Both the position numbers and the translations under genes were made by a program. From an uncultured Bdellovibrionales bacterium (GTDB taxonomy: Bacteria > Patescibacteriota > Minisyncoccia > Moranbacterales > UBA1568), in contig CAYLJX010000003.1 in assembly GCA_964384235.1 (NCBI GenBank), positions 8,389-72,388 on the forward strand: a stretch of 64,000 nucleotides of DNA. The letters are read 5' to 3'. The notes beneath the pieces are model-generated. The model had not been told where the DNA came from, did no database searches, and saw nothing but the letters and a program-made list of their open reading frames with translations. This document shows positions 3,325 to 55,776 of the stretch, in pieces; position 1 is the first letter of the stretch; each line of letters opens with the position of its first letter.

Positions 3325-3380
3325 ATGATTAGCTGCTAGCTTCCTAGCTTCGTTAGCTTCTTAACTTCAATATTCTAACA

Positions 3381-9973: not shown

Positions 9974-10276
9974 ATGAAGCAAGGTATCCACCCCACCTAT
10001 TTCGAGGAAGCGACTGTCACCTGCGCCTGCGGCGCGGTGTTTCAGACTGGCTCGACCGTCCAGACGATGGATGTCGAAATCTGCTCGCAGTGCCATCCGT
10101 TCTATACCGGCAAGAAGAAATTCATCGACACCACCGGCCGCGTCGACCGCTTCAAGAAGCTGACTGAACGCTCCATCGAAAAGAAAGGCGCCCTCAAGAC
10201 CAAGGCTCCTCGCGTCAAGAAGGACCAGAAAGAAAAGAAGGAAACCGCTCCCGCCAAGGCCGAGAAGGCTGCTTAG
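9974..10276 (+). CDS. rpmE: 50S ribosomal protein L31
   Basis: [47 protein letters not shown] has the type-A zinc-binding motifs. Confidence 0.9.
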
Positions 10277-10344
10277 CGACTTTTCTCAAGCGCTTTCTTT
10301 TCCGTACCTGTGCCCCATTACATTCGAAACTTTTGAGAAAGCGC

Positions 10345-10420: not shown

Positions 10421-11515
10421 ATGAACGATCTCATCACCGAAATCGAACGCGAGCACCAGGCCGTGACCGCGGCTCTGAGCGATCCGGAAATCGTGAAAGA
10501 ACCCAAGAAGCTCGCGGACTTCGGCCGCCGCAAGACCGAACTCGACGCCATCATCGAACGCGCCGAGAAGCTTCGTGCTGTCGAAAAGAGCATGCGCGAC
10601 AACGCCGCTCTCACTCATGATCCGGACATGGACGCGGAGCTCAAAAGCATGGCCATCGAGGAGAACATCGCGCTCGCCGAACAGAAGACCGCGCTCGAGG
10701 AAGAACTGAAGCGCCTCCTCCTCCCGAAAGACCGGAACGATGACAAGGATATCATAGTCGAGATCCGTGGCGGCGCCGGCGGGGACGAATCCACCCTCTT
10801 CGCGGCCGAACTGTATCGCATGTACGTCCATTACGCGGAAACTCTCGGTTGGCGCATCACCATGCTCCACTCCAACCAGACCGAAGTCGGCGGGTTCAAG
10901 GAAGCCGTCTTTGAGATCAACCGCGGCGGAAGCGACATACCGGTCTATTCCAAGATGAAGTACGAATCCGGCGTACACCGTGTCCAGCGCGTCCCTGAAA
11001 CCGAGAAGATGGGCCGCGTCCACACTTCGACCGTGACCGTCGCCGTCCTCCCTCAGGCCGAAGAAGTGGAAATCTCCATCAATCCGGCTGACCTGCGCAT
11101 CGATACCTTCTGTTCCTCCGGTCCCGGCGGCCAATCGGTCAACACTACCTACAGCGCCGTCCGTATCACCCACATCCCGAGCGGTCTCGTCGTCTCCTGT
11201 CAGGACGAGAAGTCCCAGATCAAGAACCGTGACAAGGCCATGAAGGTCCTGCGCTCGCGCCTCCTCCAGATGGAAGAGGAACGCCAGGCCAAGGAGCAGG
11301 GCGACGCCCGTCGCAGCCAGATCGGCACCGGCGACCGAAGCGAGAAGATCCGCACCTACAATTTCCCCCAGGACCGCATCACCGACCACCGTATCAAAGA
11401 ATCCTGGAGCAATCTCCACGGCATCCTCGCCGGCAACCTCGAACCCATCCTCTCCGCCCTCGAAGCCGAGGATATCCGCCGCAAACTGGAAAGACAGTCA
11501 ACAGAAAACAGTTAA
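10421..11515 (+). CDS. prfA: peptide chain release factor 1
   Basis: GGQ motif ([23 protein letters not shown]) and a PET tripeptide (RF1-type PxT). The ORF track starts at 10406, but [10 protein letters not shown] at 10421 is the more likely start. Confidence 0.9.
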
Positions 11516-11637
11516 CAACAAACAAAGAAACACGAATATGTTGCACACTATAACATACGACCGGATATTATAGTGTGCATGCCCGGGAACTTCGTATCCG
11601 TACTGTTTTCTGTTTTTTGTTGACTGTTATCTGATTT

Positions 11638-12522
11638 ATGACCGTTCAAGCGCTCCAAAAAAAATTCCTCCCCTCCCTCGCGCCGGAGGATTTTTTCGTT
11701 CTGCTTGCGGAAGCGACCAGCAAGGACAAGGCATTCCTCCTGGCCCATCCGGAATACGAGCTTAGGGCAGAGACAGAAGCGAAAGCCCAGGAATACTTCG
11801 CGAGACGCCTCCGCCATGAACCAGTCGCCTACATCGTCGGCCACAAGGAGTTCTACGGCCGGGATTTCAGGGTGACCCCCGCGACGCTCATCCCCAGACC
11901 GGAAACCGAACTGCTTGTCGAGCTTACGCTCAACGAGATTTCCAATTTCCAATTTCCAATTTCCAAAAAAATAATCCTTATCGATGTAGGAACGGGGAGC
12001 GGGAATATCATCATCACCCTTGCAAAGGAAATATCATATCTCATATCTCATATCTCATCATTCAGTTTCCATGCAACGGACATTTCCCTCGATGCGCTCA
12101 CCGTCGCGAAAGAAAATTCCAAACGACATCACGTCGATCATCTCATCTCTTTCCATCAGGGCGATCTCCTTACACCGATCATCGATGAACTGAGAGAGGC
12201 AGAACACATCATCATCACCGCCAATCTCCCTTATCTCTCCGAAACGATCTACGATGACGCCGAAGACGACGTGAAGGATTTCGAACCACGAAGCGCACTC
12301 ATAAGCGACGAGGAGGGACTCGCGCACTCATATCGTCTCCTGGAACAGCTCCACGCACTCACAGCACGCAAGTCTCTCGACGTGTTTTTTGAAATCAGTC
12401 CGGAACAATCTTCTCTTCTGCAAGATCGCATCCGGACGCTCTTTCCTGAGTCAAAAACAACTATTCATCCTGACCTTTCCGGCCGGGACAGAATTGTCTC
12501 TTTTTCCCTTTTTCGAGCCTAA
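11638..12522 (+). CDS. prmC: release factor glutamine N5-methyltransferase PrmC/HemK
   Basis: Class I SAM methyltransferase motifs (ILIDVGTGSGNIIITLA and TANLPYLS, the latter an NPPY-like motif). It lies immediately after prfA as in many bacteria. It contains two in-frame heptanucleotide tracts. Confidence 0.8.
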   Translation: MTVQALQKKFLPSLAPEDFFVLLAEATSKDKAFLLAHPEYELRAETEAKAQEYFARRLRHEPVAYIVGHKEFYGRDFRVTPATLIPRPETELLVELTLNEISNFQFPISKKIILIDVGTGSGNIIITLAKEISYLISHISSFSFHATDISLDALTVAKENSKRHHVDHLISFHQGDLLTPIIDELREAEHIIITANLPYLSETIYDDAEDDVKDFEPRSALISDEEGLAHSYRLLEQLHALTARKSLDVFFEISPEQSSLLQDRIRTLFPESKTTIHPDLSGRDRIVSFSLFRA

Positions 12523-12602: not shown

Positions 12603-12722
12603 ACTATTTGCGCTTCTTGGTGGTCTTCTTCGCGGCCTTCTTCTTCGTCACCTTCTTCGCGGCCTTCTTCTTCGTCACCTTCTTCGCAACTTTCTTTTTG
12701 GTTGTCTTTTTCTTGGCTGCCA
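12603..12722 (-). CDS. small lysine-rich basic protein (histone H1/HCT-like), 39 aa
   Basis: Not in the ORF track. The minus-strand ORF MAAKKKTTKKKVAKKVTKKKAAKKVTKKKAAKKTTKKRK is preceded by a strong SD, GGAGGTGA, 6 nt upstream. It contains a perfect 27-nt direct duplication and ends at the bidirectional terminator. Confidence 0.55.
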
Positions 12723-13231
12723 TATTGCTCACCTCCCTCCTTGCCGTTCTTCTCATCCGTCGTTCCCGTTGGAAGCGCTCGGAGGAAGAATCGGATTATT
12801 TTTTCACACAACACGATTTTTATTTTCAGAGTGTGTGATGCGCGGAAAAATTTTTCCGTACATTTTTATTATACTCTCTTTTTCAAAAATGCAAAGGGAA
12901 AAATAATTCCTGTCAACACCTCGTACACTATTACAAACGATGAAGAGAAAAGTTTCATGTAACAACCGAAGAAAAGTAAAATGAGAAATGGAAAATTAAA
13001 AAATTTAAAAGCAAAATTCAAAATGATTTTCAAAAACAAAACCGATCACATCAATCATGCCCTTCATATTTTTAAAATTTTCCATCACCATTTTCCATTT
13101 TCATCTTTCCAATTTCCATTCTCTGTTTCCTCTGCATGATTGGCATACTCACCCGAAAATATTTCTGTGGAACTTCTATCTCTCTACCAAGAAAATCCCC
13201 ATATTACGCTGAAAAACGTGTTTTTTGTCCA

Positions 13232-23104: not shown

Positions 23105-23206
23105 TGTTGAGTGAGTAGTGAGTAGTTTGTAGTGAGTAGAAAAAATTCAAAAAATCCAGTCGGTATCATTGTTATCGGTCTACCGACTACTCACTACGAC
23201 CTACTC
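23105..23206. repeat. heptamer array (AGTGAGT x4), a 45-nt spacer, then the inverted array (ACTACTC/ACTACGA/CCTACTC)
   Basis: gagtgagtagtgagtagtttgtagtgagtag...ctactcactacgacctactcactc sits immediately upstream of the ATPase start codon. Confidence 0.6.
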
Positions 23207-23629
23207 ACTCTTGATCAGTCCCTTCTCCACGAGGCCCTGGTAGAACTTGTCAGCGAGCTCGTCGTGCATCTTGTCGAGAACGTAGTAATCCTTGAGCTTG
23301 CGCGCGACAGAGACCGCGTGCACGACGCCCTTGGTTCCGGCGAGGTCGACGAGCTTCTGTACTTTTGATTCCGCATCGGTCACATCGGCGATACTCTTGG
23401 CATCCTGATGAGTATCCGTATCGGTATCGTCACCCACCTGCTTGGCCGCACCGCCGGCCTTCGAGAGGATCTCATTGAATGTCCCTTCCGCTTGCTCGAC
23501 CGACTGCTCCGCTTGCTCGACCTGTCGCTCAGGCACGTTCGGAACCTCCTGTCCCTCGCCTCCAACCGTTTTCATCTCCTCCGGCTTCGCCTCCTGTTTC
23601 GTCTCCCCGAGAGTCAGTTCTTCAGCCAT
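23201..23629 (-). CDS. hypothetical acidic protein (142 aa)
   Basis: ORF with a Glu/Gln-rich N-terminal half. No family recognised. Confidence 0.45.
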   Translation of the reverse strand: MAEELTLGETKQEAKPEEMKTVGGEGQEVPNVPERQVEQAEQSVEQAEGTFNEILSKAGGAAKQVGDDTDTDTHQDAKSIADVTDAESKVQKLVDLAGTKGVVHAVSVARKLKDYYVLDKMHDELADKFYQGLVEKGLIKSE

Positions 23630-27982: not shown

Positions 27983-29599
27983 ATGTTCGAACAAAAAAAG
28001 TATTCCTTGCTTTCCGGACTGCTTCTCGTCGCCATCCTGCTCCTCGCCCTCTTTCTCCGGAGCTACCACATCGAAAGCATCCCTGCCGGACTCTATCCCG
28101 ACGAGGCGACCAATGCCACCGACGCCCTCCATGCCATCGAGACCGGCGACTACCGGCTCTTCTACCCCAACAACTACGGTCGTGAAGGACTCTTCATCAA
28201 TCTCCAGGCCTTTGCGCTCCAGCTTTTCGGATACAGCGTCGCGGCGCTGAAGTTCTGGTCGGTGATTTTCGGCACCCTCACCGTCCTCGGCGTGTATCTT
28301 CTCGGCAAAGAACTCTTCCGCCGCCGGGCCGCCGGTCTCGCTGCCGCCTTCATGACAGCCACCGCCTTCTGGACCATCAACTTTTCACGCATCGGCTTCC
28401 GGGCCATCATGATGCCGTTCCTTATTTCGTTCACGTTCTTCTTTTTCTTCCGCGGACTGCGGACCAGGCGGTACCTCGACTTCGTCTGGAGCGGACTCTT
28501 CCTCGGTCTCGGACTCCATACCTATGTCGCGTTCCGGCTCACGCCGCTCATCTTCGTCGTTCTTCTGCCGGCCCTGTTTCTCTCGTATGAGAAGTTCCTC
28601 AAGCGCTATTGGAAACACGCTCTCGCCTTTTCTTTCGCTGCTTTCGTCGCGGCCGCACCGATGTTCTACCATTTCTTCGTCACCAACCCGGAGGACTTCG
28701 CTTCCCGTTCCGCCGCCGTTTCCATCTTTTCCCCCGAAATCAATCACGGCGACTTCTTCGGGACGCTCGGCAAGACCTTCAGTCTCTCGCTCATCAAGTA
28801 CAACTTTCTCGGTGACCAGAACTGGCGTCACAACTATCCGCCCTATCCGATCCTCGACCCGCTGGTCGGCACGTTCTTCCTCGCCGGTTTCCTCTTCGTC
28901 ATCTGGCAGATCGTCCATCAGGTTATCATCCGTTTCCGCGATCGCAACCGCGAGATCGACCTAGTACGGAACACGTTCCTTCTCGGTTCGTTCTTCGTGA
29001 TGCTCATGCCGGAATTCCTCACCGAGGAAGGATTGCCCCATGCCCTGCGCGCCATCGGCACCCAGGTACCCGTCTTTCTCATCGCCTCATTGCCAATCCT
29101 CTGGATTCTCCGACAGATCCATCGCTCACAGGCCGGATCCCGCCTGATACTCACTTCCCTCCTGGTCCTCTTCCTCGCGGGGAGCGCTCTCATCAATATC
29201 ACCAAGTACTTCGTGTTCTTCGCACAGAGTCCCGAACAGCACGGCGCCTTCGATGAGCGCTACACCAACATGTCCCGCTACCTCCTCTCCCTGCCCGCCG
29301 AGACCCGCAAGTATGTCCTGACCAACGCCGGCGGCACCCATATCGACAACGGCCTCCCCGTCACCGCCCAGCCGATCGCCTTCCTCACCTATGGGAAGAT
29401 CGAGAATCTCGACTACCTGCAGCCGGATACCCGCATCGACCGCAGCTATGAGAATATCATCGTCTTCCAACGAGACGACGACCGGGTCGTCGAGAACCTC
29501 AAAAAGCGCGTTCCCGATGTGAAGATCGAAAAGATCGATCCGCGTCCGGAATTCGGCGGAGGTTTCACCGTCGCCATCCTCCCGGCCTTGCAGAAATGA
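27983..29599 (+). CDS. GT-C family glycosyltransferase (ArnT/PMT-like, polyprenyl-phosphate-sugar dependent)
   Basis: 538 aa polytopic membrane protein. Its N-terminus LYPDEATNATDALHAIETGDY... with DE in the first periplasmic loop is typical of the GT39/GT83 (PMT_2) family. Confidence 0.7.
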   Translation: MFEQKKYSLLSGLLLVAILLLALFLRSYHIESIPAGLYPDEATNATDALHAIETGDYRLFYPNNYGREGLFINLQAFALQLFGYSVAALKFWSVIFGTLTVLGVYLLGKELFRRRAAGLAAAFMTATAFWTINFSRIGFRAIMMPFLISFTFFFFFRGLRTRRYLDFVWSGLFLGLGLHTYVAFRLTPLIFVVLLPALFLSYEKFLKRYWKHALAFSFAAFVAAAPMFYHFFVTNPEDFASRSAAVSIFSPEINHGDFFGTLGKTFSLSLIKYNFLGDQNWRHNYPPYPILDPLVGTFFLAGFLFVIWQIVHQVIIRFRDRNREIDLVRNTFLLGSFFVMLMPEFLTEEGLPHALRAIGTQVPVFLIASLPILWILRQIHRSQAGSRLILTSLLVLFLAGSALINITKYFVFFAQSPEQHGAFDERYTNMSRYLLSLPAETRKYVLTNAGGTHIDNGLPVTAQPIAFLTYGKIENLDYLQPDTRIDRSYENIIVFQRDDDRVVENLKKRVPDVKIEKIDPRPEFGGGFTVAILPALQK

Positions 29600-29642: not shown

Positions 29643-31577
29643 ATGGAACTTCTCAAAAAACACGCTGGTCGGATCGTCCTCCTCATCCTCGTCCTCTTCT
29701 TTGCCGTCTCACTCGTCGTCTCCCGACAGGAATCCACCACCATGGACGAGAAGGCCCATATCCCCGCCGGGTACAGCTACGTCCGCTATGGTGACATGCG
29801 TATCAATCCCGAACATCCGCCCATGCTCAAGGATTTCGCCGGGCTGCCGCTTCTCCTCCTCGATCCGCAGCCGGTGATGCCGCAAAGCGACCCCCTCTGG
29901 GAGAGCGGTGACTGGTTGGACAAGACGAAGTTCCCCGAGGGACCGGCCCGTACCTGGGGACTCGCCCAATGGAACTTCGGTGACACAATCCTTCATCAAA
30001 ATGGGAACGACGCCGACGCGATCACCTTCTGGTCACGCTTCCCGATCGTACTGGTCGCCATGCTTCTCGGTTTCTTCGTCTATCGCTGGACCAAGGAACT
30101 CGGTGGGACGCTCGCGGGACTCTTCGCCCTCGTCCTCTATGCCTTCGATCCCAACATCATCGCCCACAGTCACTACGTGACGACCGACATCGGCATCGCC
30201 GCCTTCATCTTCATGTCGATGTACTACTTCGTCCGCTTCCTCAAGGACCCGAGCGGAAAGAACGTCATCCTCTCCGGTCTCTTCCTCGGTCTCGCGGAAC
30301 TCGCCAAGTTCTCCGCCGTCCTTCTCTTTCCCATCTTCGGACTGTTCACGGTCGCCTACGCCCTCACCTTCCAGGTGAACGGGACCTCCGTATGGAAAGC
30401 CAAGTTCCTGAAGCTCTGGGAATACCTCTGGAAATATGCCGCCTCCGTGGCGGTCGCCTTTGTCGCCATCTGGATCCTCTACTTCGTGAACACCATCAAT
30501 ATGCCGGGCGAGGTCATCGCGGAGATCGCCCGCGCCCAGTTCCCCAATGACCGTAGCCTAGGACGACTGGCGGAAACAGCCGTCATCGCGATGAGCAACG
30601 TCCCCGTCCTCAAGCCGCTTGCCGAATACTTCCTCGGCGTCTTCATGGTCTTCGCACGCGTCGCCGGCGGCAACACCTTCTACTTCCTCGGCACCGTCTC
30701 CAACCACGCCGATCCCTGGTACTTCCCGGTCGTCTTCTTCCTCAAGGAAACCCTGCCGTTCCTCTTCCTGCTTCTTTTCACCACTCTCTACACCCTCTAT
30801 CGCATCGGCCGCTCCGTCGCGATGGAAGAGACGAAAAACATCCGATCGCTCTGGAACCTCTTCGCCCGATCCTTCCAGCACCGCATCGCGCAGTACCTGG
30901 CCGCGTTCTTCATCCTCTTCTATGCGTACGTGAGCATCACCGGCAACCTCAACATCGGCTTCCGTCATCTCTTCCCCATCCTGCCGTTCCTCTACATGCT
31001 CGTGGGGAAGACTGCCTTCGACTTCCTCAAGCGCCACCAGGAGGAGATCGCGACGCACGGGCTCATCCGCTTCGCGCTCGGTGCCGTCGTCCTCGTCATC
31101 ATCGCCATCCCGGTCCTCTCCTACCCGAGCTACCTCTCCTATTTCAACCCCATCGGCGGCGGCCACGAGAACGGATACAAATATGTCACCGACTCCAACT
31201 ACGACTGGGGTCAGGACCTCAAGCGCTTGCGGAATTTCGTGGATCAGTACAATGGTTGTCAGGATAGTACGACCACATCCATCGACTGTACGAAGATCCC
31301 ATTCGTACCAGGAAGCAGCGAGATCGACAAGATCCATGTCGACTATTTCGGCGGATCGAATCCGCAGTACTATCTCGGCGACAAGTATGTCCCGACACAC
31401 GGCGAAGCCGCCCCGGGAACCGGCTGGTACGCCGTCTCCATCGGCTTCCTCCAGGAGAGCACCCACAAGGAACTCAAACCCGGCGACATGAGCTACCGCT
31501 GGCTCGTCGACAATCATGAGCCCGTCGCCCGCGCCGGCGATTCCATCTTCATCTACTACGTCCCGGAAGAAGAGTAG
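29643..31577 (+). CDS. GT-C family glycosyltransferase (ArnT/PMT-like), paralogue of the preceding gene
   Basis: 644 aa. Same architecture (TM1, a MDEKAHIPAGYSY loop, and more than 10 TM helices) plus a larger C-terminal periplasmic domain. Confidence 0.7.
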   Translation: MELLKKHAGRIVLLILVLFFAVSLVVSRQESTTMDEKAHIPAGYSYVRYGDMRINPEHPPMLKDFAGLPLLLLDPQPVMPQSDPLWESGDWLDKTKFPEGPARTWGLAQWNFGDTILHQNGNDADAITFWSRFPIVLVAMLLGFFVYRWTKELGGTLAGLFALVLYAFDPNIIAHSHYVTTDIGIAAFIFMSMYYFVRFLKDPSGKNVILSGLFLGLAELAKFSAVLLFPIFGLFTVAYALTFQVNGTSVWKAKFLKLWEYLWKYAASVAVAFVAIWILYFVNTINMPGEVIAEIARAQFPNDRSLGRLAETAVIAMSNVPVLKPLAEYFLGVFMVFARVAGGNTFYFLGTVSNHADPWYFPVVFFLKETLPFLFLLLFTTLYTLYRIGRSVAMEETKNIRSLWNLFARSFQHRIAQYLAAFFILFYAYVSITGNLNIGFRHLFPILPFLYMLVGKTAFDFLKRHQEEIATHGLIRFALGAVVLVIIAIPVLSYPSYLSYFNPIGGGHENGYKYVTDSNYDWGQDLKRLRNFVDQYNGCQDSTTTSIDCTKIPFVPGSSEIDKIHVDYFGGSNPQYYLGDKYVPTHGEAAPGTGWYAVSIGFLQESTHKELKPGDMSYRWLVDNHEPVARAGDSIFIYYVPEEE

Positions 31578-33933: not shown

Positions 33934-35088
33934 TCATAATTCCTTATTCGTCATTCCATATTCATCGACAAGTTTCCGTATTTCTTCTTGGAAATGCCGT
34001 TTTGAAAAACGTTCTACAGAAGAACGCATACGCGTTTCGTCGTATTTCCCCTCTTTCTCCAGAAACCGACGCACGCCTTCGGCGATGATTTCCGGCGTCG
34101 CCGCGTGAAAGAGCTCGCCGGTGATACCCGGTTCCACGATTTCGCGGATGCCACCATACTCGTACCCGATGACCGGTGTCCCGAAGGAGAGCGCCTCCAC
34201 CGCCACCATGCCGAAATCCTCCTCGGACGGGAAGATGACAGCCCGCGTTTCACGGTAGTATTTCGCAAGTGCTTCATCCGACGCGAACCCGAAAAAGGAA
34301 ACGTTGTCTGCCGCGATACTCTTCAGTCGCTTCTCTTCCTTTCCCGTTCCCACGATGACGAGCGGGAACCCCAGCTTGTTGAACGCTTCGATCACCGCTT
34401 CGACCTTCTTGGCTCTGGTAAGACGCGACACGACCAGAAAGTGACGGCGTTTCACGTCGTCACCCTGAACTTGTTTCAGGGTCTTTGTGGCCTGCTCGGA
34501 CAACCCAAGCGCTGGCGGGTACACCACCACGCTTTCCCTCCGATAGTACTTGCGCACGCGCTCTTCGGTGAATTTGGAATTGGCAATGAGGAAGTCCGGG
34601 CGCTCCGCCGCTTCTCGGTCCCAGAGTCGCAGATACGAGAGAAGGAGCCGCGTGAAAATCCTTCGCTTCCCTCGCGGCTGCAAGTCGTCGAGATACTCGG
34701 CGTGCGTATCCCAGGCGTAGCGCATGGGCGAATGGAGATACGCGATATGGGTCGTGTTGAGCCGCGTCACGATCCCCTTGCTCCAGGCGCCAGAAGACGA
34801 GATGACGAGATCGAAGTCGCGCAGATCGAACGTCTCCACCGCCACCGGAAAGAACGGCAAAAGCCACCGATACCGCTTCCGGAGGAATTTCGGAAACTTC
34901 TGAAGAAACGATGGACGGATATCCCGATTTTTGAAGTGTCCTTCGACAAGCTCAGGGTTGGCAAGCAACGTATAGATCGGCGCCTCGGGAAACATCTCCG
35001 CAAACGCCTCAAGCACCCGCTCCGCTCCACCATATGAAACGAGAAAATCATGAACAAGGGCGATTTTTTTGTTGTTCGGCTGGTTCAT
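33934..35088 (-). CDS. glycosyltransferase family 4 (GT-B, retaining)
   Basis: C-terminal EX7E-type motif region ...FPSEEDFGMVAVEALSFGTPVIGYEYGGIREIV... The start was taken at MNQPNNKKIALVHDF. Its ATG overlaps the stop of the next gene (ATGA). Confidence 0.75.
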   Translation of the reverse strand: MNQPNNKKIALVHDFLVSYGGAERVLEAFAEMFPEAPIYTLLANPELVEGHFKNRDIRPSFLQKFPKFLRKRYRWLLPFFPVAVETFDLRDFDLVISSSGAWSKGIVTRLNTTHIAYLHSPMRYAWDTHAEYLDDLQPRGKRRIFTRLLLSYLRLWDREAAERPDFLIANSKFTEERVRKYYRRESVVVYPPALGLSEQATKTLKQVQGDDVKRRHFLVVSRLTRAKKVEAVIEAFNKLGFPLVIVGTGKEEKRLKSIAADNVSFFGFASDEALAKYYRETRAVIFPSEEDFGMVAVEALSFGTPVIGYEYGGIREIVEPGITGELFHAATPEIIAEGVRRFLEKEGKYDETRMRSSVERFSKRHFQEEIRKLVDEYGMTNKEL

Positions 35089-36200
35089 TTTTCTTTTCTT
35101 AACAACCCAATAATGCCTCGAGAACATCTTTCCCAGGAAAATTTTTCGACATTCTTCTTTCCTTTTTCTATTATACCACCCCGAAAAACTTCATCTGAAA
35201 GGACTTTTTGTACCGCGTCGGCTATCGCTTCGGCACTCGAAGGATCGCAATACGCCGCCCCCTCGCCTGCCACTTCCGGAAGCGATGAAGTATCTGACGT
35301 CACCACCGGCACCCCTACCGCCTGCGCCTCCAGGACCGGGATCCCGAATCCTTCATACAGCGTCGGAAACAGAAATACGTCGGCATTTTTCAACAACTCC
35401 CATTTCTCTTCCTCGATCACATATCCTCGTTCAACGATGTCGTCCGCGACTTTTGCCTTTTGCCTTTTGCCTTTTGCCTTTTCATACCCATACCCCGGTT
35501 TTCCCACAAGCACGAGCTTATGCGGTATCTTGTATTTCTCTTTCAAAATCCCAAACGCCTCGATTATTCGTACGACGTTCTTTCTTTCTTCCAATCTCCC
35601 AATGAATAAAAGGTATTCTGTATTATGTATCTTGTATTTTGTATCCGATACTTGATACTTAATACCTGATACTTGATACCGATTCTCATATCCTTCATAC
35701 ACCACCTTCACCCTCTCCTCCGGCACGCCATACAATTTCACCACGTCGCGCTTGGTATTCTCCGACACGGCGATAACCGTTTCCGACACGCGCACCGAAA
35801 AGCGGATGGAATAGCGCATATAGATCCGCTCCCACCAAGAGTACGCCTTCGGACAGAATTCGTATTCGAGCCCGTGCACCGTCACGATGGTCTTCTTAGG
35901 GTGAATGAGCGGCACCGTGTGCGCCGGCACGAAAAGCACGTCCGGCGGATGAAAAAACATCTCCAGGGACAGCCGGATCTGTGTCCAGAACCTCGGCGCC
36001 CAGAGCTTCTTCACCCGCCAGTGCTTCGGAAGGTCAAAAGAAACCTCTTGATCGGAACGGATATACAAAACTACCCGATCATTGTTCGGTATGGCATCAC
36101 GCAGGTGCCTGATCACCTGGTAGCTGTATTCTTCTATTCCCGTCCGTCTCTTCAGAAACGCCCTCGATGCGTCGATACCGATTATCATAGTCAAGTTCAA
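35085..36200 (-). CDS. glycosyltransferase family 4 (GT-B) containing in-frame heptanucleotide repeat tracts
   Basis: ...FLFPTLYEGFGIPVLEAQAVGVPVVTSDTSSLPEVAG... GT4 signature. It contains (TTTTGCC)x4 at 35451-35478 and a nine-unit heptamer block at 35620-35682. Confidence 0.75.
   Translation of the reverse strand: MNLTMIIGIDASRAFLKRRTGIEEYSYQVIRHLRDAIPNNDRVVLYIRSDQEVSFDLPKHWRVKKLWAPRFWTQIRLSLEMFFHPPDVLFVPAHTVPLIHPKKTIVTVHGLEYEFCPKAYSWWERIYMRYSIRFSVRVSETVIAVSENTKRDVVKLYGVPEERVKVVYEGYENRYQVSGIKYQVSDTKYKIHNTEYLLFIGRLEERKNVVRIIEAFGILKEKYKIPHKLVLVGKPGYGYEKAKGKRQKAKVADDIVERGYVIEEEKWELLKNADVFLFPTLYEGFGIPVLEAQAVGVPVVTSDTSSLPEVAGEGAAYCDPSSAEAIADAVQKVLSDEVFRGGIIEKGKKNVEKFSWERCSRGIIGLLRKEK
35451..35482. 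repeat. (TTTTGCC)x4 + TTTT heptanucleotide tract inside the GT4 gene
   Basis: cgac ttttgcc ttttgcc ttttgcc ttttgcc ttttcat encodes EKAKGKRQKAKVAD on the minus strand. The unit length is not a multiple of 3. Confidence 0.8.
35620..35682. repeat. heptamer array TGTATnn x4 followed by the inverted array GATACnT x5, inside the GT4 coding sequence
   Basis: tgtatta tgtatct tgtattt tgtatcc gatactt gatactt aatacct gatactt gataccg. The 63 nt block is in-frame and encodes ...YENRYQVSGIKYQVSDTKYKIHNTEY... Confidence 0.75.
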
Positions 36201-49981: not shown

Positions 49982-50752
49982 TCAGGCGACCGCTTTTTTC
50001 CTCGCGTACTCACCGATACGATAGGCACCCGAGATGAGCCGTCCTTTCGTCTTGAACAGGTCGATGAGCACCTGGATGAAGCCATTCGGACCGGTGAGAC
50101 TCACCGTCGATCCCTCCTCGTTCATCCAGCGTACCGGCATCTGCTTGATCTTGAAGCCGAGCTTGTGCGCAAGGATGATGAGCTCGAAGTCGAAGCCGAA
50201 GCGGTCCACCACCATGCGGCTCGCCACTTCCTTGGCCGCTTCCGCCGAGAGCATCTTGAATCCGCACTGGGTATCCGGATAGCTCCACAGTCCCAGGACG
50301 ATACGGATGAGCCAGTTGCCGCCCTCACCCATGATCTCACGATGTTTCGGCTGGTGCACCTGAATGAAGGATCCTTCGATCTTGCGCGAACCGATGACGA
50401 CGTCATACCCGGCCTCGAACTGCGGGAGGAAAGTGTCGAGATGCGTGATGGAGGTAGAGCCGTCGGCGTCGAGAAAGACCCGACATTTCCCCGTCGCTTC
50501 CAAGAGTCCCTGGCGGACGACGTAGCCCTTGCCGTGGTTCTCGGGATTGTCGATGACGCGGAGGTTCGGTACCTGGAGTGAATAGTTCCTCGCCACTTCC
50601 GCCGTGTTGTCCGGAGAACCGTCCACGACGACCACGATCTCGTAGGTATACCGCTTGTCCTTCAGGTATTTGTCTATTTCCAACAGATTACGCCCGATAC
50701 GCTCCCCTTCCTTGTAGGCGGGAATGATGACGGAAAGAAACGGTTGTTCCAT
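49982..50752 (-). CDS. GT2 family glycosyltransferase, polyprenyl-phosphate sugar synthase-like (DPM1/ArnC-type)
   Basis: LSVIIPAYKEGERI...; DGSPDNT; DAD (DxD) motif. At 256 aa it is the likely donor-lipid synthase partner for the GT-C enzymes. Confidence 0.75.
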   Translation of the reverse strand: MEQPFLSVIIPAYKEGERIGRNLLEIDKYLKDKRYTYEIVVVVDGSPDNTAEVARNYSLQVPNLRVIDNPENHGKGYVVRQGLLEATGKCRVFLDADGSTSITHLDTFLPQFEAGYDVVIGSRKIEGSFIQVHQPKHREIMGEGGNWLIRIVLGLWSYPDTQCGFKMLSAEAAKEVASRMVVDRFGFDFELIILAHKLGFKIKQMPVRWMNEEGSTVSLTGPNGFIQVLIDLFKTKGRLISGAYRIGEYARKKAVA

Positions 50753-51250: not shown

Positions 51251-51292
51251 GACTTTCGCCTTCTTTCAAGGTTTTGAGAAATTACAAAAACG

Positions 51293-51376
51293 TATCATGT
51301 ATCAAGTATTACGTATTATGTATAAAAGCAAATCATTCCCCATACATAATACATGATACGCAATACACAATACTCC
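51293..51376. repeat. heptamer array GTATnnn x5, a spacer, then the inverted array nATACnn x5
   Basis: gtatcat gtatcaa gtattac gtattat gtataaa agcaaatcattcc ccatacataatacatgatacgcaatacacaatactc, in the intergenic region between map and ruvX. Confidence 0.65.
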
Positions 51377-52144
51377 CTATCTTGTCACGACTTCCGCTCC
51401 TGTCTCAGTGATGACCACCGTGTCCTCGAAGTGTGCCGAAAGCGACCCGTCCGCCGTGACGAACGTCCAGCCGTCGGAGGCGATCCGCACCGGGAAACCG
51501 CCTGCATTGACCATCGGCTCGAGTGCGAGTGTCATGCCGGCCTCGAGGAAAAAATCGTGCATGCCGCGCGAGACATAGTTCGGCACCTGTGGCTCCTCAT
51601 GGAGCTCACGCCCCACGCCGTGTCCCACCAGGTCGCGCACCACCGAACAACCGTTCGCCTCGACGAATGACTGTACGGCCTGCGCATAGACGGAGATCCG
51701 TGCCCCGGGCTTCAGTTCGGCGATGCCCCGATCGAGACTCTCTTGTGTCACATCCAAAAGATGTTTGGCTTCGGCGGAAATATTTCCTACCGGAACCGTC
51801 CGCGCCATGTCAGTCACCATTCCCTCATAACGCAGACCGATATCGAGCTTCAAAAGGTCACCGTCATGCAGTACCCGGTCCCTCTTCGGAATGCCGTGCA
51901 CCACCTCGTCATTGAGCGACACGCACAAAGAAGCCGGAAACGGTGTTCCCGACTCTTTGCCATATCCCTTGAAAATAGGAGTCCCTCCTTCTTCACGGAT
52001 CAACCGTTCGGCGAGCGTATCGATCTCCTCCGTCGTCATTCCCGGCCGGACGCTTCGTATCACCGTATCGAGCACGCGAGCGAGGCGCTTGCCTGACTCG
52101 CGCAGTCGCCTCACCTCATCGTCGGTTTTGATCCACTGTTTCAT
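51377..52144 (-). CDS. map: methionine aminopeptidase, type I
   Basis: ...FKGYGKESGTPFPASLCVSLNDEVVHGIP...HGVGRELHEEP... The start was taken at MKQWIKTDDEV, 7 nt after the adk stop. The ORF track extends 46 codons upstream into adk. Confidence 0.85.
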   Translation of the reverse strand: MKQWIKTDDEVRRLRESGKRLARVLDTVIRSVRPGMTTEEIDTLAERLIREEGGTPIFKGYGKESGTPFPASLCVSLNDEVVHGIPKRDRVLHDGDLLKLDIGLRYEGMVTDMARTVPVGNISAEAKHLLDVTQESLDRGIAELKPGARISVYAQAVQSFVEANGCSVVRDLVGHGVGRELHEEPQVPNYVSRGMHDFFLEAGMTLALEPMVNAGGFPVRIASDGWTFVTADGSLSAHFEDTVVITETGAEVVTR

Positions 52145-55666: not shown

Positions 55667-55679
55667 TAATATCTAGCTT

Positions 55680-55776
55680 TCTAGCTTCGTTAGCTTTTAG
55701 CTTCGTTAGCTTCCTAATTTCATCAGCCGTTATTCCTAACAAGCTAGTGAAGCTAAGAAGCTAGTGAAGCTGATCT
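55680..55776. repeat. heptamer array TAGCTTC-like x5, a spacer, then the inverted array GAAGCTA-like x4, inside the spc operon between rplF and rplR
   Basis: agctttc tagcttc gttagct tttagct tcgttag cttccta atttcatcagccgttattcctaacaa gctagtg aagctaa gaagcta gtgaagc. The TAGCTTC array also occurs at 3333-3372. Confidence 0.65.

Follow-up and report, generated by a model that had tools for sequence, protein, structure and literature searches.

Can a heptanucleotide repeat inside the coding region of a glycosyltransferase switch an envelope glycan on and off in a member of the Candidate Phyla Radiation (CPR)? Most bacteria of the CPR, or Patescibacteria, have yet to be cultured; they live in attachment to other cells and carry few classical regulators, and how they vary their surfaces has, to our knowledge, hardly been described. 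The question is raised by a 64,000-nucleotide stretch of DNA (the window), in which an initial annotation had proposed a candidate slipped-strand phase-variation switch within a GT4 glycosyltransferase gene. That proposal drew on the classic mechanism of host-associated bacteria, whereas the present DNA comes from a CPR bacterium of groundwater type (Candidatus Moranbacteria), which is no classical host-associated pathogen. In the literature collection searched, no paper tied simple-sequence repeats (SSRs) or phase variation to CPR genomes.

The repeat in question is a perfect heptanucleotide microsatellite at positions 35450-35482 on the minus strand, which had been reported as 35451-35482 in a different rotation. 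Tandem Repeats Finder assigned it a period of 7, 4.7 copies, 100% matches and a score of 66, and a separate perfect-run scan returned the identical 33-nt run, which reads (CTTTTGC)x4.7 on the plus strand and (AAAAGGC)n on the coding strand. As claimed previously, the present copy number keeps the reading frame: the ORF is open through KAKGKRQKAK, and translation across the tract gives GYGYEKAKGKRQKAKVADD. The product of the tract, EKAKGKRQKAK (about residues 236-247), belongs to a helix on the surface of the C-terminal Rossmann domain, placed at residues 235-244 in an AlphaFold model with pLDDT values of 81-87 in the blocks spanning residues 231-250. The tract lies at two-thirds of the gene's length, away from the 5' end. 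The window contains three perfect heptamer arrays with three or more copies, while 20 shuffles yielded no period-7 array at all, and we regard the flagged tract as a genuine slippage-prone microsatellite. That it might represent an insertion relative to orthologues was ruled out, the helix being of equal length in 22 of 23 aligned homologues.

The gene that carries the tract (35085-36188, minus strand; 367 aa from its ATG) was identified by Pfam and Foldseek as a GT4 glycosyltransferase of the retaining type with a GT-B fold. Specifically, an N-terminal Glyco_transf_4 domain (PF13439, E 9.2e-15, residues 17-166) and a C-terminal Glycos_transf_1 domain (PF00534, E 4.4e-36, residues 188-345) both scored above their curated cut-offs, and the AlphaFold model (mean pLDDT 87.5, pTM 0.84) has the two Rossmann domains of a GT-B fold, with Foldseek matches to MshA, BshA, GlgM, sucrose-phosphate synthase and WaaG (E 1e-20 to 1e-16, TM 0.71-0.78). 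The E-x7-E motif appears as LYE279-GFGIPVL-E287AQ, and both glutamates are invariant in an alignment of 23 sequences. The exact protein is held in public collections as P0121, and searches returned no characterised close homologue, the best sequence match in the PDB having an E value of 1.6e-12. By analogy with the family the enzyme is probably cytoplasmic; its acceptor, and with it a role in surface glycosylation, is putative.

A second GT4 gene follows downstream (33934-35088, minus strand; assigned from sequence, Pfam and the gene call in L001, which is identical to the window). The ATGA stop/start overlap that had been described between the two genes was recovered, appearing as 'tcat' at 35085-35088 of the plus strand, and an alternative gene call in L001 starts the downstream GT4 at 35127, 43 nt inside the first. 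With regard to the surrounding glycosylation cluster, the members listed by the initial annotation were found, comprising two PMT_2-type GT-C genes (27983-29599 and 29643-31577), the two GT4 genes and a GT2-like ORF (about 49982-50752), but they do not make up a dedicated glycan operon: the immediate neighbours of the GT4 pair encode MurA, MreB, HolB and an FtsQ-like protein. The GT4-GT4 pair is syntenic in relatives, and the tract-bearing gene shows high conservation and keeps its synteny with core genes of the envelope and of cell division.

What slippage would do to this gene was examined in silico. Loss or gain of one unit gave a product of 254 aa, loss of two units gave 247 aa and gain of two gave 261 aa, and loss or gain of three units kept the frame. 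The predicted products of one- and two-unit slips (247-261 aa) are without the catalytic C-terminal half, and the expectation that gain or loss of one or two units would frameshift the gene was borne out by these truncations. We also considered whether the A-rich units could cause programmed slippage, ribosomal or transcriptional, and set this aside: a classical slippery site has the form X XXY YYZ, to which AAAAGGC does not conform, and the tract contains no long homopolymer.

Two independent sequences of the flagged tract were available, those of the window (L001) and of L002 (ENA ERZ28615168), an independent sample and assembly in which the gene is about 99% identical, and both contained 4.7 copies in the same 33-nt tract. 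L002 additionally had a 21-nt (three-unit) in-frame deletion within a degenerate array that encodes the interdomain linker of the same protein. A Logan assembly with the flagged tract was 100% identical over 9.6 kb. That the tract or its copy number is an unreal product of assembly or sequencing is highly improbable given that the 33 nt are shared by the independent L002 and by the Logan assembly, are far shorter than the read and k-mer lengths used, and have exactly the 4.7-copy length that an open ORF requires. A sign that assemblies can break near such repeats came from orthologue L024, which has an N-gap and a duplicated segment just upstream of its array; the weak, split match that made L024 look like a frameshifted orthologue is in fact this scaffold gap and duplication beside the array.

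Slipped alleles were sought in searches of low power, in which exact tract flanks separated by a variable gap (two units either way) had no match in JGI metagenome contigs, none of the six products predicted for slips of -3 to +3 units was found by exact look-up in a collection of 15 billion proteins, and no truncated form was present among the two members of the 90% cluster of the GT4 protein. Close relatives of the protein occurred at four loci only in the JGI metagenome contigs, none of them with the flagged tract. The strain is known from just two or three contigs, so the absence of slip products says little. Some candidates for altered lengths had other explanations: two 57-aa entries in a GT4 cluster (P0195 and P0196) are unrelated short proteins rather than truncated GT4, the divergent tail of P0132 is not explained by a heptamer slip, and several differences of 7 aa or 13 aa within 90% clusters stem from alternative starts or C-terminal differences, with no array change.

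One-unit polymorphism was present in a sister population, the orthologue of which is about 65% identical and shares the synteny MurA-MreB-GT4-GT4-HolB-FtsQ. Its array, a perfect (AATTCCA)x4.4 in the interdomain linker, had four units in eight contigs (L089-L096) and three units in two (L087 and L088), and the 7-nt loss in the three-unit allele splits the gene into ORFs of 229/215 aa and 159 aa. Over 3.8 kb, L088 matches L092 exactly apart from the 7-nt gap, and L087 and L096 differ by one mismatch and the 7-nt gap; since the two haplotype backgrounds also differ from each other, the change is either recurrent or has been moved by recombination. Variation with consequences for the frame is therefore found at an equivalent array of the same gene family. 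The proposal of a phase switch retains its candidate standing through the perfect repeat of non-3n unit length, this one-unit split and the enrichment of arrays in glycosyltransferase genes (below), but at the tract itself the length was constant in the two sequences.

The sister alleles bear on a neutral by-product reading, which we consider rather unlikely, albeit a serious contender. It holds that a 7-nt slippage bias seeds short arrays throughout and that selection spares the in-frame ones in dispensable surface loops; decayed arrays would seed new ones, rendering the GT4 loops tolerant, self-perpetuating hot spots, and frameshifted alleles would be ordinary deleterious mutations or nascent pseudogenes. 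The lack of variation at the flagged tract in the sequences and scans, all of low power, agrees with this account. However, the OFF allele of the sister population is the consensus in two of ten assemblies and is carried by two haplotype backgrounds, not what one would expect of a rare deleterious mutation in a conserved gene.

Comparison with orthologues, recommended by the initial annotation, showed that period 7 is retained at the position of the tract, with differing repeat units. Lag-7 self-similarity in the helix-coding stretch exceeded that at other lags in all 12 of 12 sequences, the window included (Wilcoxon p 2.4e-4). The same 33 nt are taken up by near-perfect arrays of other units in L095 (AGAATCA) and in L008 (AAATTGA), and by weaker arrays in L032 and L024, with CAAATTN and AAAATNN also among the units of these four orthologues. 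The four arrays are equal in length and register and their units are unlike each other, which argues for continuing homogenisation by slippage at a single site. The encoded helix residues are not conserved (KAKGKRQKAK versus IRIKNQESRI or IKLKIENCKL), and the fixed-length period-7 structure is kept among orthologues with only about 52-65% protein identity, a persistence that counts against neutral origin and decay.

The same comparison weighs on the idea that the repeat is kept for a role of its own, as an mRNA or DNA structure, a site for a heptamer-binding protein or a lysine-rich helix that binds a membrane or a partner, the frameshift being irrelevant. Inverted pairs of heptamer arrays gave unusually stable predicted hairpins (z -4.9 to -7.2), one of them inside the GT4 gene, heptamer repeats are bound by CspB-type proteins (PMC4679880), and the length of the helix is constant across orthologues. 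We nevertheless deem such a role improbable: the units differ completely between orthologues and thus leave no conserved nucleic-acid motif, no inverted partner lies close to the flagged tract, the encoded residues change from one orthologue to the next, and a 7-nt period could not be created by selection at the protein level. Where sequences cluster at 90% identity or more, it is the loops encoded by arrays that are hypervariable, changing in in-frame steps of 7 aa. Protein-level diversifying selection on the loops was rejected as the driver, as a period of 7 nt is not a multiple of 3 and the enzyme would, by family analogy, sit in the cytoplasm.

Other heptamer arrays in the window supplied points in favour of the neutral reading. 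Within the same GT4 gene, two adjacent degenerate arrays, (AGTATCA)~5 followed by (AATACAA)~5 on the coding strand, lie at 35613-35679 (minus strand), where Tandem Repeats Finder placed them at 35613-35644 and 35647-35679 with 84% matches. These encode the disordered interdomain linker (about residues 168-190, with pLDDT <50 at residues 171-183), and form a predicted mRNA hairpin (dG -17.3 kcal/mol, z -5.1); the linker (query residues 166-192) is also the main array hot spot among orthologues. Two perfect arrays on the plus strand, (ATTTCCA)x4.1 at 11938-11966, encoding ISNFQFPIS, and (TCATATC)x3.6 at 12034-12058, are in prmC, an ORF with Pfam PrmC_N and methyltransferase domains. Arrays as perfect as these in a housekeeping gene mean that some arrays, at least, are no dedicated switch, and the degenerate arrays kept in frame in the GT4 gene mean that purity is not always maintained. 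Both observations fit a neutral origin, as does the placement of arrays in the disordered linker and the surface helix. Furthermore, two papers that summarise the over-representation of heptameric long SSRs (Mrazek 2007) describe heptamers as the most abundant class of long SSRs in many prokaryotes and ascribe them to polymerase slippage (PMC4692102, PMC4679880); a purely mutational cause has been proposed. The commonest length in Xanthomonas is four units, and in the loci compared here period 7 dominated the tandem repeats (score at least 40, at least three copies), accounting for 32 of 43 arrays at Moranbacteria-type loci and for 40 of 72 at the remaining loci, among which Chloroflexi loci shared the dominance.

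Tolerance alone does not readily explain, however, how the perfect arrays are distributed among genes. In 24 CPR-type loci totalling 494 kb, every one of which was selected for its GT4 gene, the GT4/GT2-like ORFs that make up 18% of the DNA held 20 of the 23 perfect heptamer arrays (binomial p 1.8e-12), and perfect arrays of at least 24 nt numbered 15 in 96 kb of the GT4 orthologue versus 19 in 1,227 kb of flanks. Apart from the target GT4, the array-bearing ORFs in the scan encoded GT4 paralogues, GT2, a GT9-WecG fusion, MurJ and Wzy_C, with prmC as the exception. Perfect arrays were mostly coding, with few outside ORFs of at least 100 aa, and had diverse units (AAAAGGC, ATTTCCA, TCATATC, AGTGAGT, TAGCTTN, GTATNNN and others). 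In the GT4 family they clustered in three or four loops, and in some orthologues arrays were also found directly 5' of the start codon.

Taken with the frame consequences, these patterns make the flagged tract a credible contingency locus, and an on/off switch is plausible. We incline slightly towards reading it as a heptamer tract made and maintained by slippage and acting as a contingency locus in a Moranbacteria GT4 gene. Under this proposal, replication strand slippage would add or remove 7-nt units at the tract, a one- or two-unit change would shift the frame and end translation at residues 247-261, and the enzyme, deprived of the half that binds the nucleotide sugar and with it of the E-x7-E motif (279-287), would be off until a compensating slip brought back the only length that is permitted. 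As such cycles recur, they would homogenise the units and so leave every lineage with a unit of its own, the place and length being shared. The GT4 locus would then be a phase-variable contingency locus for an envelope glycan, with the OFF phase probably lowering the expression of the translationally coupled downstream GT4 through a putative polar effect. The tract is one member of a lineage-wide set of 4-5-unit heptamer arrays, which are concentrated in tolerant loops and 5' leaders of glycosyltransferase genes. The proposal presumes an appreciable slip rate at the tract, switching that is reversible and beneficial, and a glycan phenotype.

More tentatively, and with less than even confidence, we suggest that a lineage-wide heptamer contingency system for envelope glycosyltransferases could exist in CPR bacteria such as Moranbacteria and Levybacteria, and possibly also in some Chloroflexi. 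Its short arrays, sited in a few structurally tolerant loops and in 5' leaders, would be held periodic over long evolutionary spans by ON-OFF-ON slippage cycles with a fixed ON length. If true, no SSR phase-variation system would have been described in the CPR before it, and it would endow ultra-small episymbionts with stochastic switching of surface glycans, for example against phage or for host attachment. Heterogeneity of CPR surface glycans would become measurable from repeat lengths in existing metagenomic reads, and split glycosyltransferase genes in MAGs would be OFF phases, not pseudogenes or assembly errors. The combination of fixed length, fixed site and lineage-specific units also provides a concrete case in which to study the dominance of 7-nt units in bacterial microsatellites.

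As a candidate for phase variation, the tract adds to a known kind, and it is the lineage that is unusual. As in Neisseria pglA/pglE/pglG/pglH, the LPS glycosyltransferase genes of Haemophilus influenzae and the poly-G tracts of Campylobacter, an intragenic SSR with a non-3n unit would shift the frame and turn the gene off. The repeat unit of Neisseria pglE is likewise a heptanucleotide. Glycosyltransferase genes with SSR phase variation and heptanucleotide SSRs at hmw1A are documented in H. influenzae (PMC2651432), the pgl glycosyltransferase genes of Neisseria are phase-variable (PMC11130364), and repeats here are concentrated in surface-glycan genes as they are in those systems (PMC11130364; PMC2651432). 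Unlike those host-adapted bacteria, the host here is an environmental CPR organism with short arrays (4-5 units), several per gene, which lie mid-gene in structural loops instead of close to the 5' end; protein structure apparently fixes the ON length, the unit is lineage-specific and switching is predicted. Like the hmw1A/hmw2A promoter repeats and the intragenic AATTTTG/AACAACC tracts of H. influenzae, the tract has a 7-nt unit, and changes in array length alter expression or frame. With 4.7 units it is short beside the heptamer examples cited here, which range from 1 to 38 units across strains, mostly 13-38 at hmw loci (PMC2651432). A frameshift at a heptamer tract inside a gene has been reported in H. 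influenzae (PMC2651432; PMC8262952). The hmw tracts, however, are mostly in promoters and grade expression with 13-38 units, while the 4.7 units here encode part of a folded domain.

The arrays also resemble the tandem heptamers of cyanobacteria, GGGAATC in Xanthomonas and TAACTGA in Beggiatoaceae, in that period 7 is dominant, about four units are typical, inverted pairs are capable of forming hairpins, and length and sequence vary among close relatives. Those heptamer SSRs are mainly intergenic with one or a few units per genome, whereas the units in the loci studied here are diverse and the perfect arrays fall mostly in frame within glycosyltransferase coding regions. By comparison with typical contingency genes, a conserved and syntenic GT4 amid core envelope and division genes is atypical.

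The tract at window positions 35450-35482 reads CTTTTGCCTTTTGCCTTTTGCCTTTTGCCTTTT on the forward strand and was scored at 66 by Tandem Repeats Finder, with a period of 7, 4.7 copies and 100% matches. On the coding (-) strand it is (AAAAGGC)4.7, encoding the peptide ...GYGYEKAKGKRQKAKVADD... within an ORF (35085-36188) that was assigned to the GT4 glycosyltransferases based on Pfam matches (PF13439 and PF00534), an AlphaFold model (mean pLDDT 87.5), and Foldseek matches to MshA, BshA, GlgM, and WaaG. A perfect-run scan of the 64-kb window recovered three heptamer arrays of at least three copies (35450-35482, 11938-11966, and 12034-12058), and the same scan found no period-7 arrays in 20 shuffles of the window sequence. 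Tandem Repeats Finder, the scan, and the translation thus agreed with the initial annotation in placing a perfect heptamer tract inside a GT4 gene. Its statement that the frame is open at the present repeat number and is broken by changes of one or two units was borne out in silico, where -1, +1, -2, or +2 units gave products of 247-261 aa and changes of three units in either direction kept the frame. The ATGA overlap between the stop of this gene and an ATG of the next GT4 is likewise present in the sequence.

The nearest homologues with source names were labelled as members of the CPR, namely Candidatus Moranbacteria or Moraniibacteriota. Gene order around the tract (MurA, MreB, GT4, GT4, HolB, FtsQ-like) was conserved in relatives and points to an envelope neighbourhood, not a dedicated glycan operon. 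Of the glycosylation cluster that had been proposed, the members are there, namely two PMT_2-type GT-C genes 4-7 kb from the flagged GT4, the two GT4 genes, and a GT2-like ORF at ~15 kb, but not an operon devoted to glycan synthesis.

Evidence for slippage came from a sister population. The 90% cluster of homologous proteins P0031/P0135 shares ~65% identity with the window protein. Two of its members were only 229 and 215 aa long, though their contigs spanned 12-14 kb, and both parted from the full-length sequence within the linker. A perfect (AATTCCA) array, equal to the flagged tract in size and purity, had four units in eight contigs (L089-L096) and three units in two (L087 and L088), where the 7-nt loss causes a frameshift and splits the GT4 gene. 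L088 was identical to L092 over 3.8 kb except for the 7-nt gap, and L087 differed from L096 by one mismatch and the same gap. The two haplotype backgrounds of the three-unit allele were unlike each other, also 5′ of the gene, indicating that the same one-unit change is found on two haplotypes, by recurrence or recombination; moreover, this allele was the consensus in two assemblies.

The flagged tract is covered by no more than two independent sequences, one shared by the window and locus L001 (100% identity over 9.6 kb; probably from the same sample) and one from L002, which came from another sample. The presence of the tract in both excludes an artefact for practical purposes, and both have 4.7 copies. 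A search of JGI metagenomes with the flank pattern yielded no length variants, sequence look-ups gave no exact match to the predicted slip products, and the members of its protein cluster included no variants; each of these tests had little power. The proposed phase switch is therefore supported in part, by a one-unit slip with an OFF outcome in an orthologue, and the length heterogeneity expected at the tract was not seen in the two sequences or the metagenome scan. Separately, locus L024 has a scaffold N-gap and a duplicated ENTKQDLMRLYQTPEEKI segment (10100-10320) directly 5′ of a perfect (AACCTAC)x4.9 array, an assembly break possibly caused by length heterogeneity.

The helix encoded by the tract had equal length in 22 of 23 aligned homologues, such that the tract is not an insertion relative to orthologues. 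The orthologue comparison exposed arrays of a different unit at the corresponding stretch in four loci: (AGAATCA)x4.7 in L095, (AAATTGA)x4.7 in L008, (CAAATTN) in L032, and (AAAATNN) in L024. Self-similarity at lag 7 exceeded that at other lags in all 12 sequences, window included (mean 0.55 vs 0.35; Wilcoxon p 2.4e-4). Since a 7-nt period cannot be produced by codon-level or protein-level selection, and would not outlast such divergence unaided, the most economical explanation is that slippage goes on homogenising the units while structure keeps the in-frame length fixed. In line with this, the array-encoded loops stood out as hypervariable in proteins that otherwise shared at least 90% identity, linker length changes in clusters of at least 90% identity included in-frame 7-aa steps, and the near-identical strain L002 had a 21-nt (3-heptamer) in-frame deletion at ~760 (equivalent to window 35680-35700), at the edge of a degenerate linker array, that removed the otherwise conserved segment VYEGYEN. 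It is unlikely that the repeat serves a function of its own, whether through RNA or DNA structure or through the lysine-rich helix, given that neither its units nor its encoded residues are conserved and that the flagged tract is without an inverted partner.

Heptamer arrays are a class in this genome region and in relatives. Tandem Repeats Finder reported about a dozen in the window, each of ~4-5 units, including two degenerate arrays (35613-35679, - strand) that encode the interdomain linker of the flagged GT4, several intergenic ones that form inverted pairs, and two perfect arrays, (ATTTCCA)x4.1 at 11938-11966 and (TCATATC)x3.6 at 12034-12058 (+ strand), in frame within the prmC ORF (11638-12522). 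Across 80 loci fetched around relatives of the flagged GT4, 32 of the 43 tandem arrays in Moranbacteria-type loci had period 7, as did 40 of the 72 in the remaining loci. This dominance fits the literature: in many prokaryotes, heptamers outnumber the other classes of long SSR, and in Xanthomonas they most commonly have four units and also form inverted pairs (PMC4692102; PMC4679880). The general excess, the prmC arrays, and the decayed arrays that are still in frame support the main rival explanation, in which slippage is biased towards 7-nt units and the tract is a neutral by-product, tolerated where loops are dispensable. Two findings weaken this explanation, which we regard as possible but the less probable: the OFF allele occurs on two backgrounds, and the arrays are concentrated in glycosyltransferase genes.

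That concentration was pronounced. Perfect heptamer arrays ≥24 nt long numbered 15 in 96 kb of GT4 orthologue vs 19 in 1,227 kb of flanks, a ~10x higher density inside the gene. In 24 CPR-type loci (494 kb), selected around a GT4 gene like all loci in these comparisons, GT4/GT2-like ORFs made up 18% of the DNA yet held 20 of 23 arrays (binomial p 1.8e-12). Nine of ten array-bearing ORFs scanned outside the target GT4 were GT4 paralogues, GT2, a GT9-WecG fusion, MurJ, or Wzy_C ligase, prmC being the sole exception. Within GT4 orthologues, arrays clustered at residues 166-192 (flagged GT4 numbering; the disordered interdomain linker, pLDDT <50 at 171-183), 31-49 (in the N-terminal domain, comprising the end of helix 18-32, a short loop, and strand 38-44), and 214-247 (including a surface helix at 235-244), all surface-exposed on the AlphaFold model. 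This targeting of arrays to glycosyltransferase loops is a broader pattern of more interest than the single tract.

On balance, we lean towards the flagged tract being a slippage-prone microsatellite that acts as a contingency locus. A slip of one or two units would truncate the enzyme ahead of its E-x7-E motif (279-287), a compensating slip would restore it, and repeated cycles would homogenise the units; that switching would have a polar effect on the coupled downstream GT4, would be reversible, and would bring any benefit is inferred, as is the glycan involved. This proposed mechanism corresponds to that of phase-variable glycosyltransferase genes switched by SSRs in Neisseria, Haemophilus, and Campylobacter, and to the heptanucleotide SSRs of H. 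influenzae. Unlike in those systems, the tract belongs to a CPR bacterium from the environment, and the arrays are short (4-5 units), several per gene, and mid-gene in structural loops, with a fixed ON length and a unit particular to each lineage. With the known heptameric SSR class, the arrays here have in common their period, a typical length of four units, and inverted pairs able to form hairpins, but that class is mainly intergenic with a single unit per genome, neither of which applies here. This is a known kind of system in an unusual lineage, and literature searches found no paper in which CPR genomes are linked to SSRs or to phase variation.

Arrays were also found immediately 5′ of the start codon in two GT4 orthologues, an inverted pair, (AATTTCT)n ... 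(GAAAATT)x4.3, in L008 (9850-9990) and (AATTCAT)x3.6 in L017 (9966-9990), the latter ending a few bases before the ATG; these may modulate the leader or RBS. Many homologues (P0004, P0011, P0051, P0088, and P0117; alignment A1) were called with N-terminal extensions (such as ..SYQLKA.., ..SYKLKA.., or KLKAKSYQLKA) that, by back-translation, look like an (AAGCTAA)n array just 5′ of the true start, and the AGCTAA/TTAGCT unit also formed intergenic arrays in the window (55672-55771 and 3329-3368). In L029 (8595-9988), a paralogous GT4 was cut exactly at the interdomain linker, leaving a 177-aa ORF with only the N-terminal domain, ending VTYPGI, followed by an inserted gene of 275 aa. The two perfect prmC arrays flank the GTGSG motif of this release-factor methyltransferase, and the unit ATTTCCA/AATTTCC (peptide ISNFQFP) recurred in GT4 linkers of the unrelated loci L004 and L032. 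In Chloroflexi, in-frame arrays were present in envelope genes (L012 8451-8728 and 12028-12060, L052 7916-7944, L045 2880-2911, and L016 934-961), among them a (CCAACCT)x12.4 array in the linker of the GT9-WecG fusion and others in MurJ, Wzy_C ligase, and a GT4 orthologue; the phenomenon is thus not limited to CPR.

Intergenic inverted heptamer pairs at 51285-51380, 23105-23222, 55668-55775, 11489-11637, and 12962-13125 (for example GTATNNN/NNNATAC, AGTGAGT/ACTCACT, and TAGCTTN/AAGCTAN) form long hairpins with 7-nt periodic arms. The first four of these regions were folded and had z-scores of -4.9 to -7.2, with no shuffle folding as well, and the fifth was read from the sequence; terminators, protein binding sites, or template-switching products are candidate roles for the intergenic hairpins. 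The degenerate linker arrays of the flagged GT4 are inverted to each other, giving an mRNA hairpin in the coding region (35608-35685, - strand; dG -17.3 kcal/mol, z -5.1), and the YQVSGIKYQVSDTKYKI-type linker was also present in several ~70% identical homologues. Finally, a 39-aa lysine-rich ORF at 12604-12726 (- strand; MAAKKKTTKKKVAKKVTKKKAAKKVTKKKAAKKTTKKRK) consists of a 27-nt repeat, perfect over 2.3 copies and with sub-repeats of 12-15 nt, and may encode a small basic, histone-like or ribosome-associated protein.
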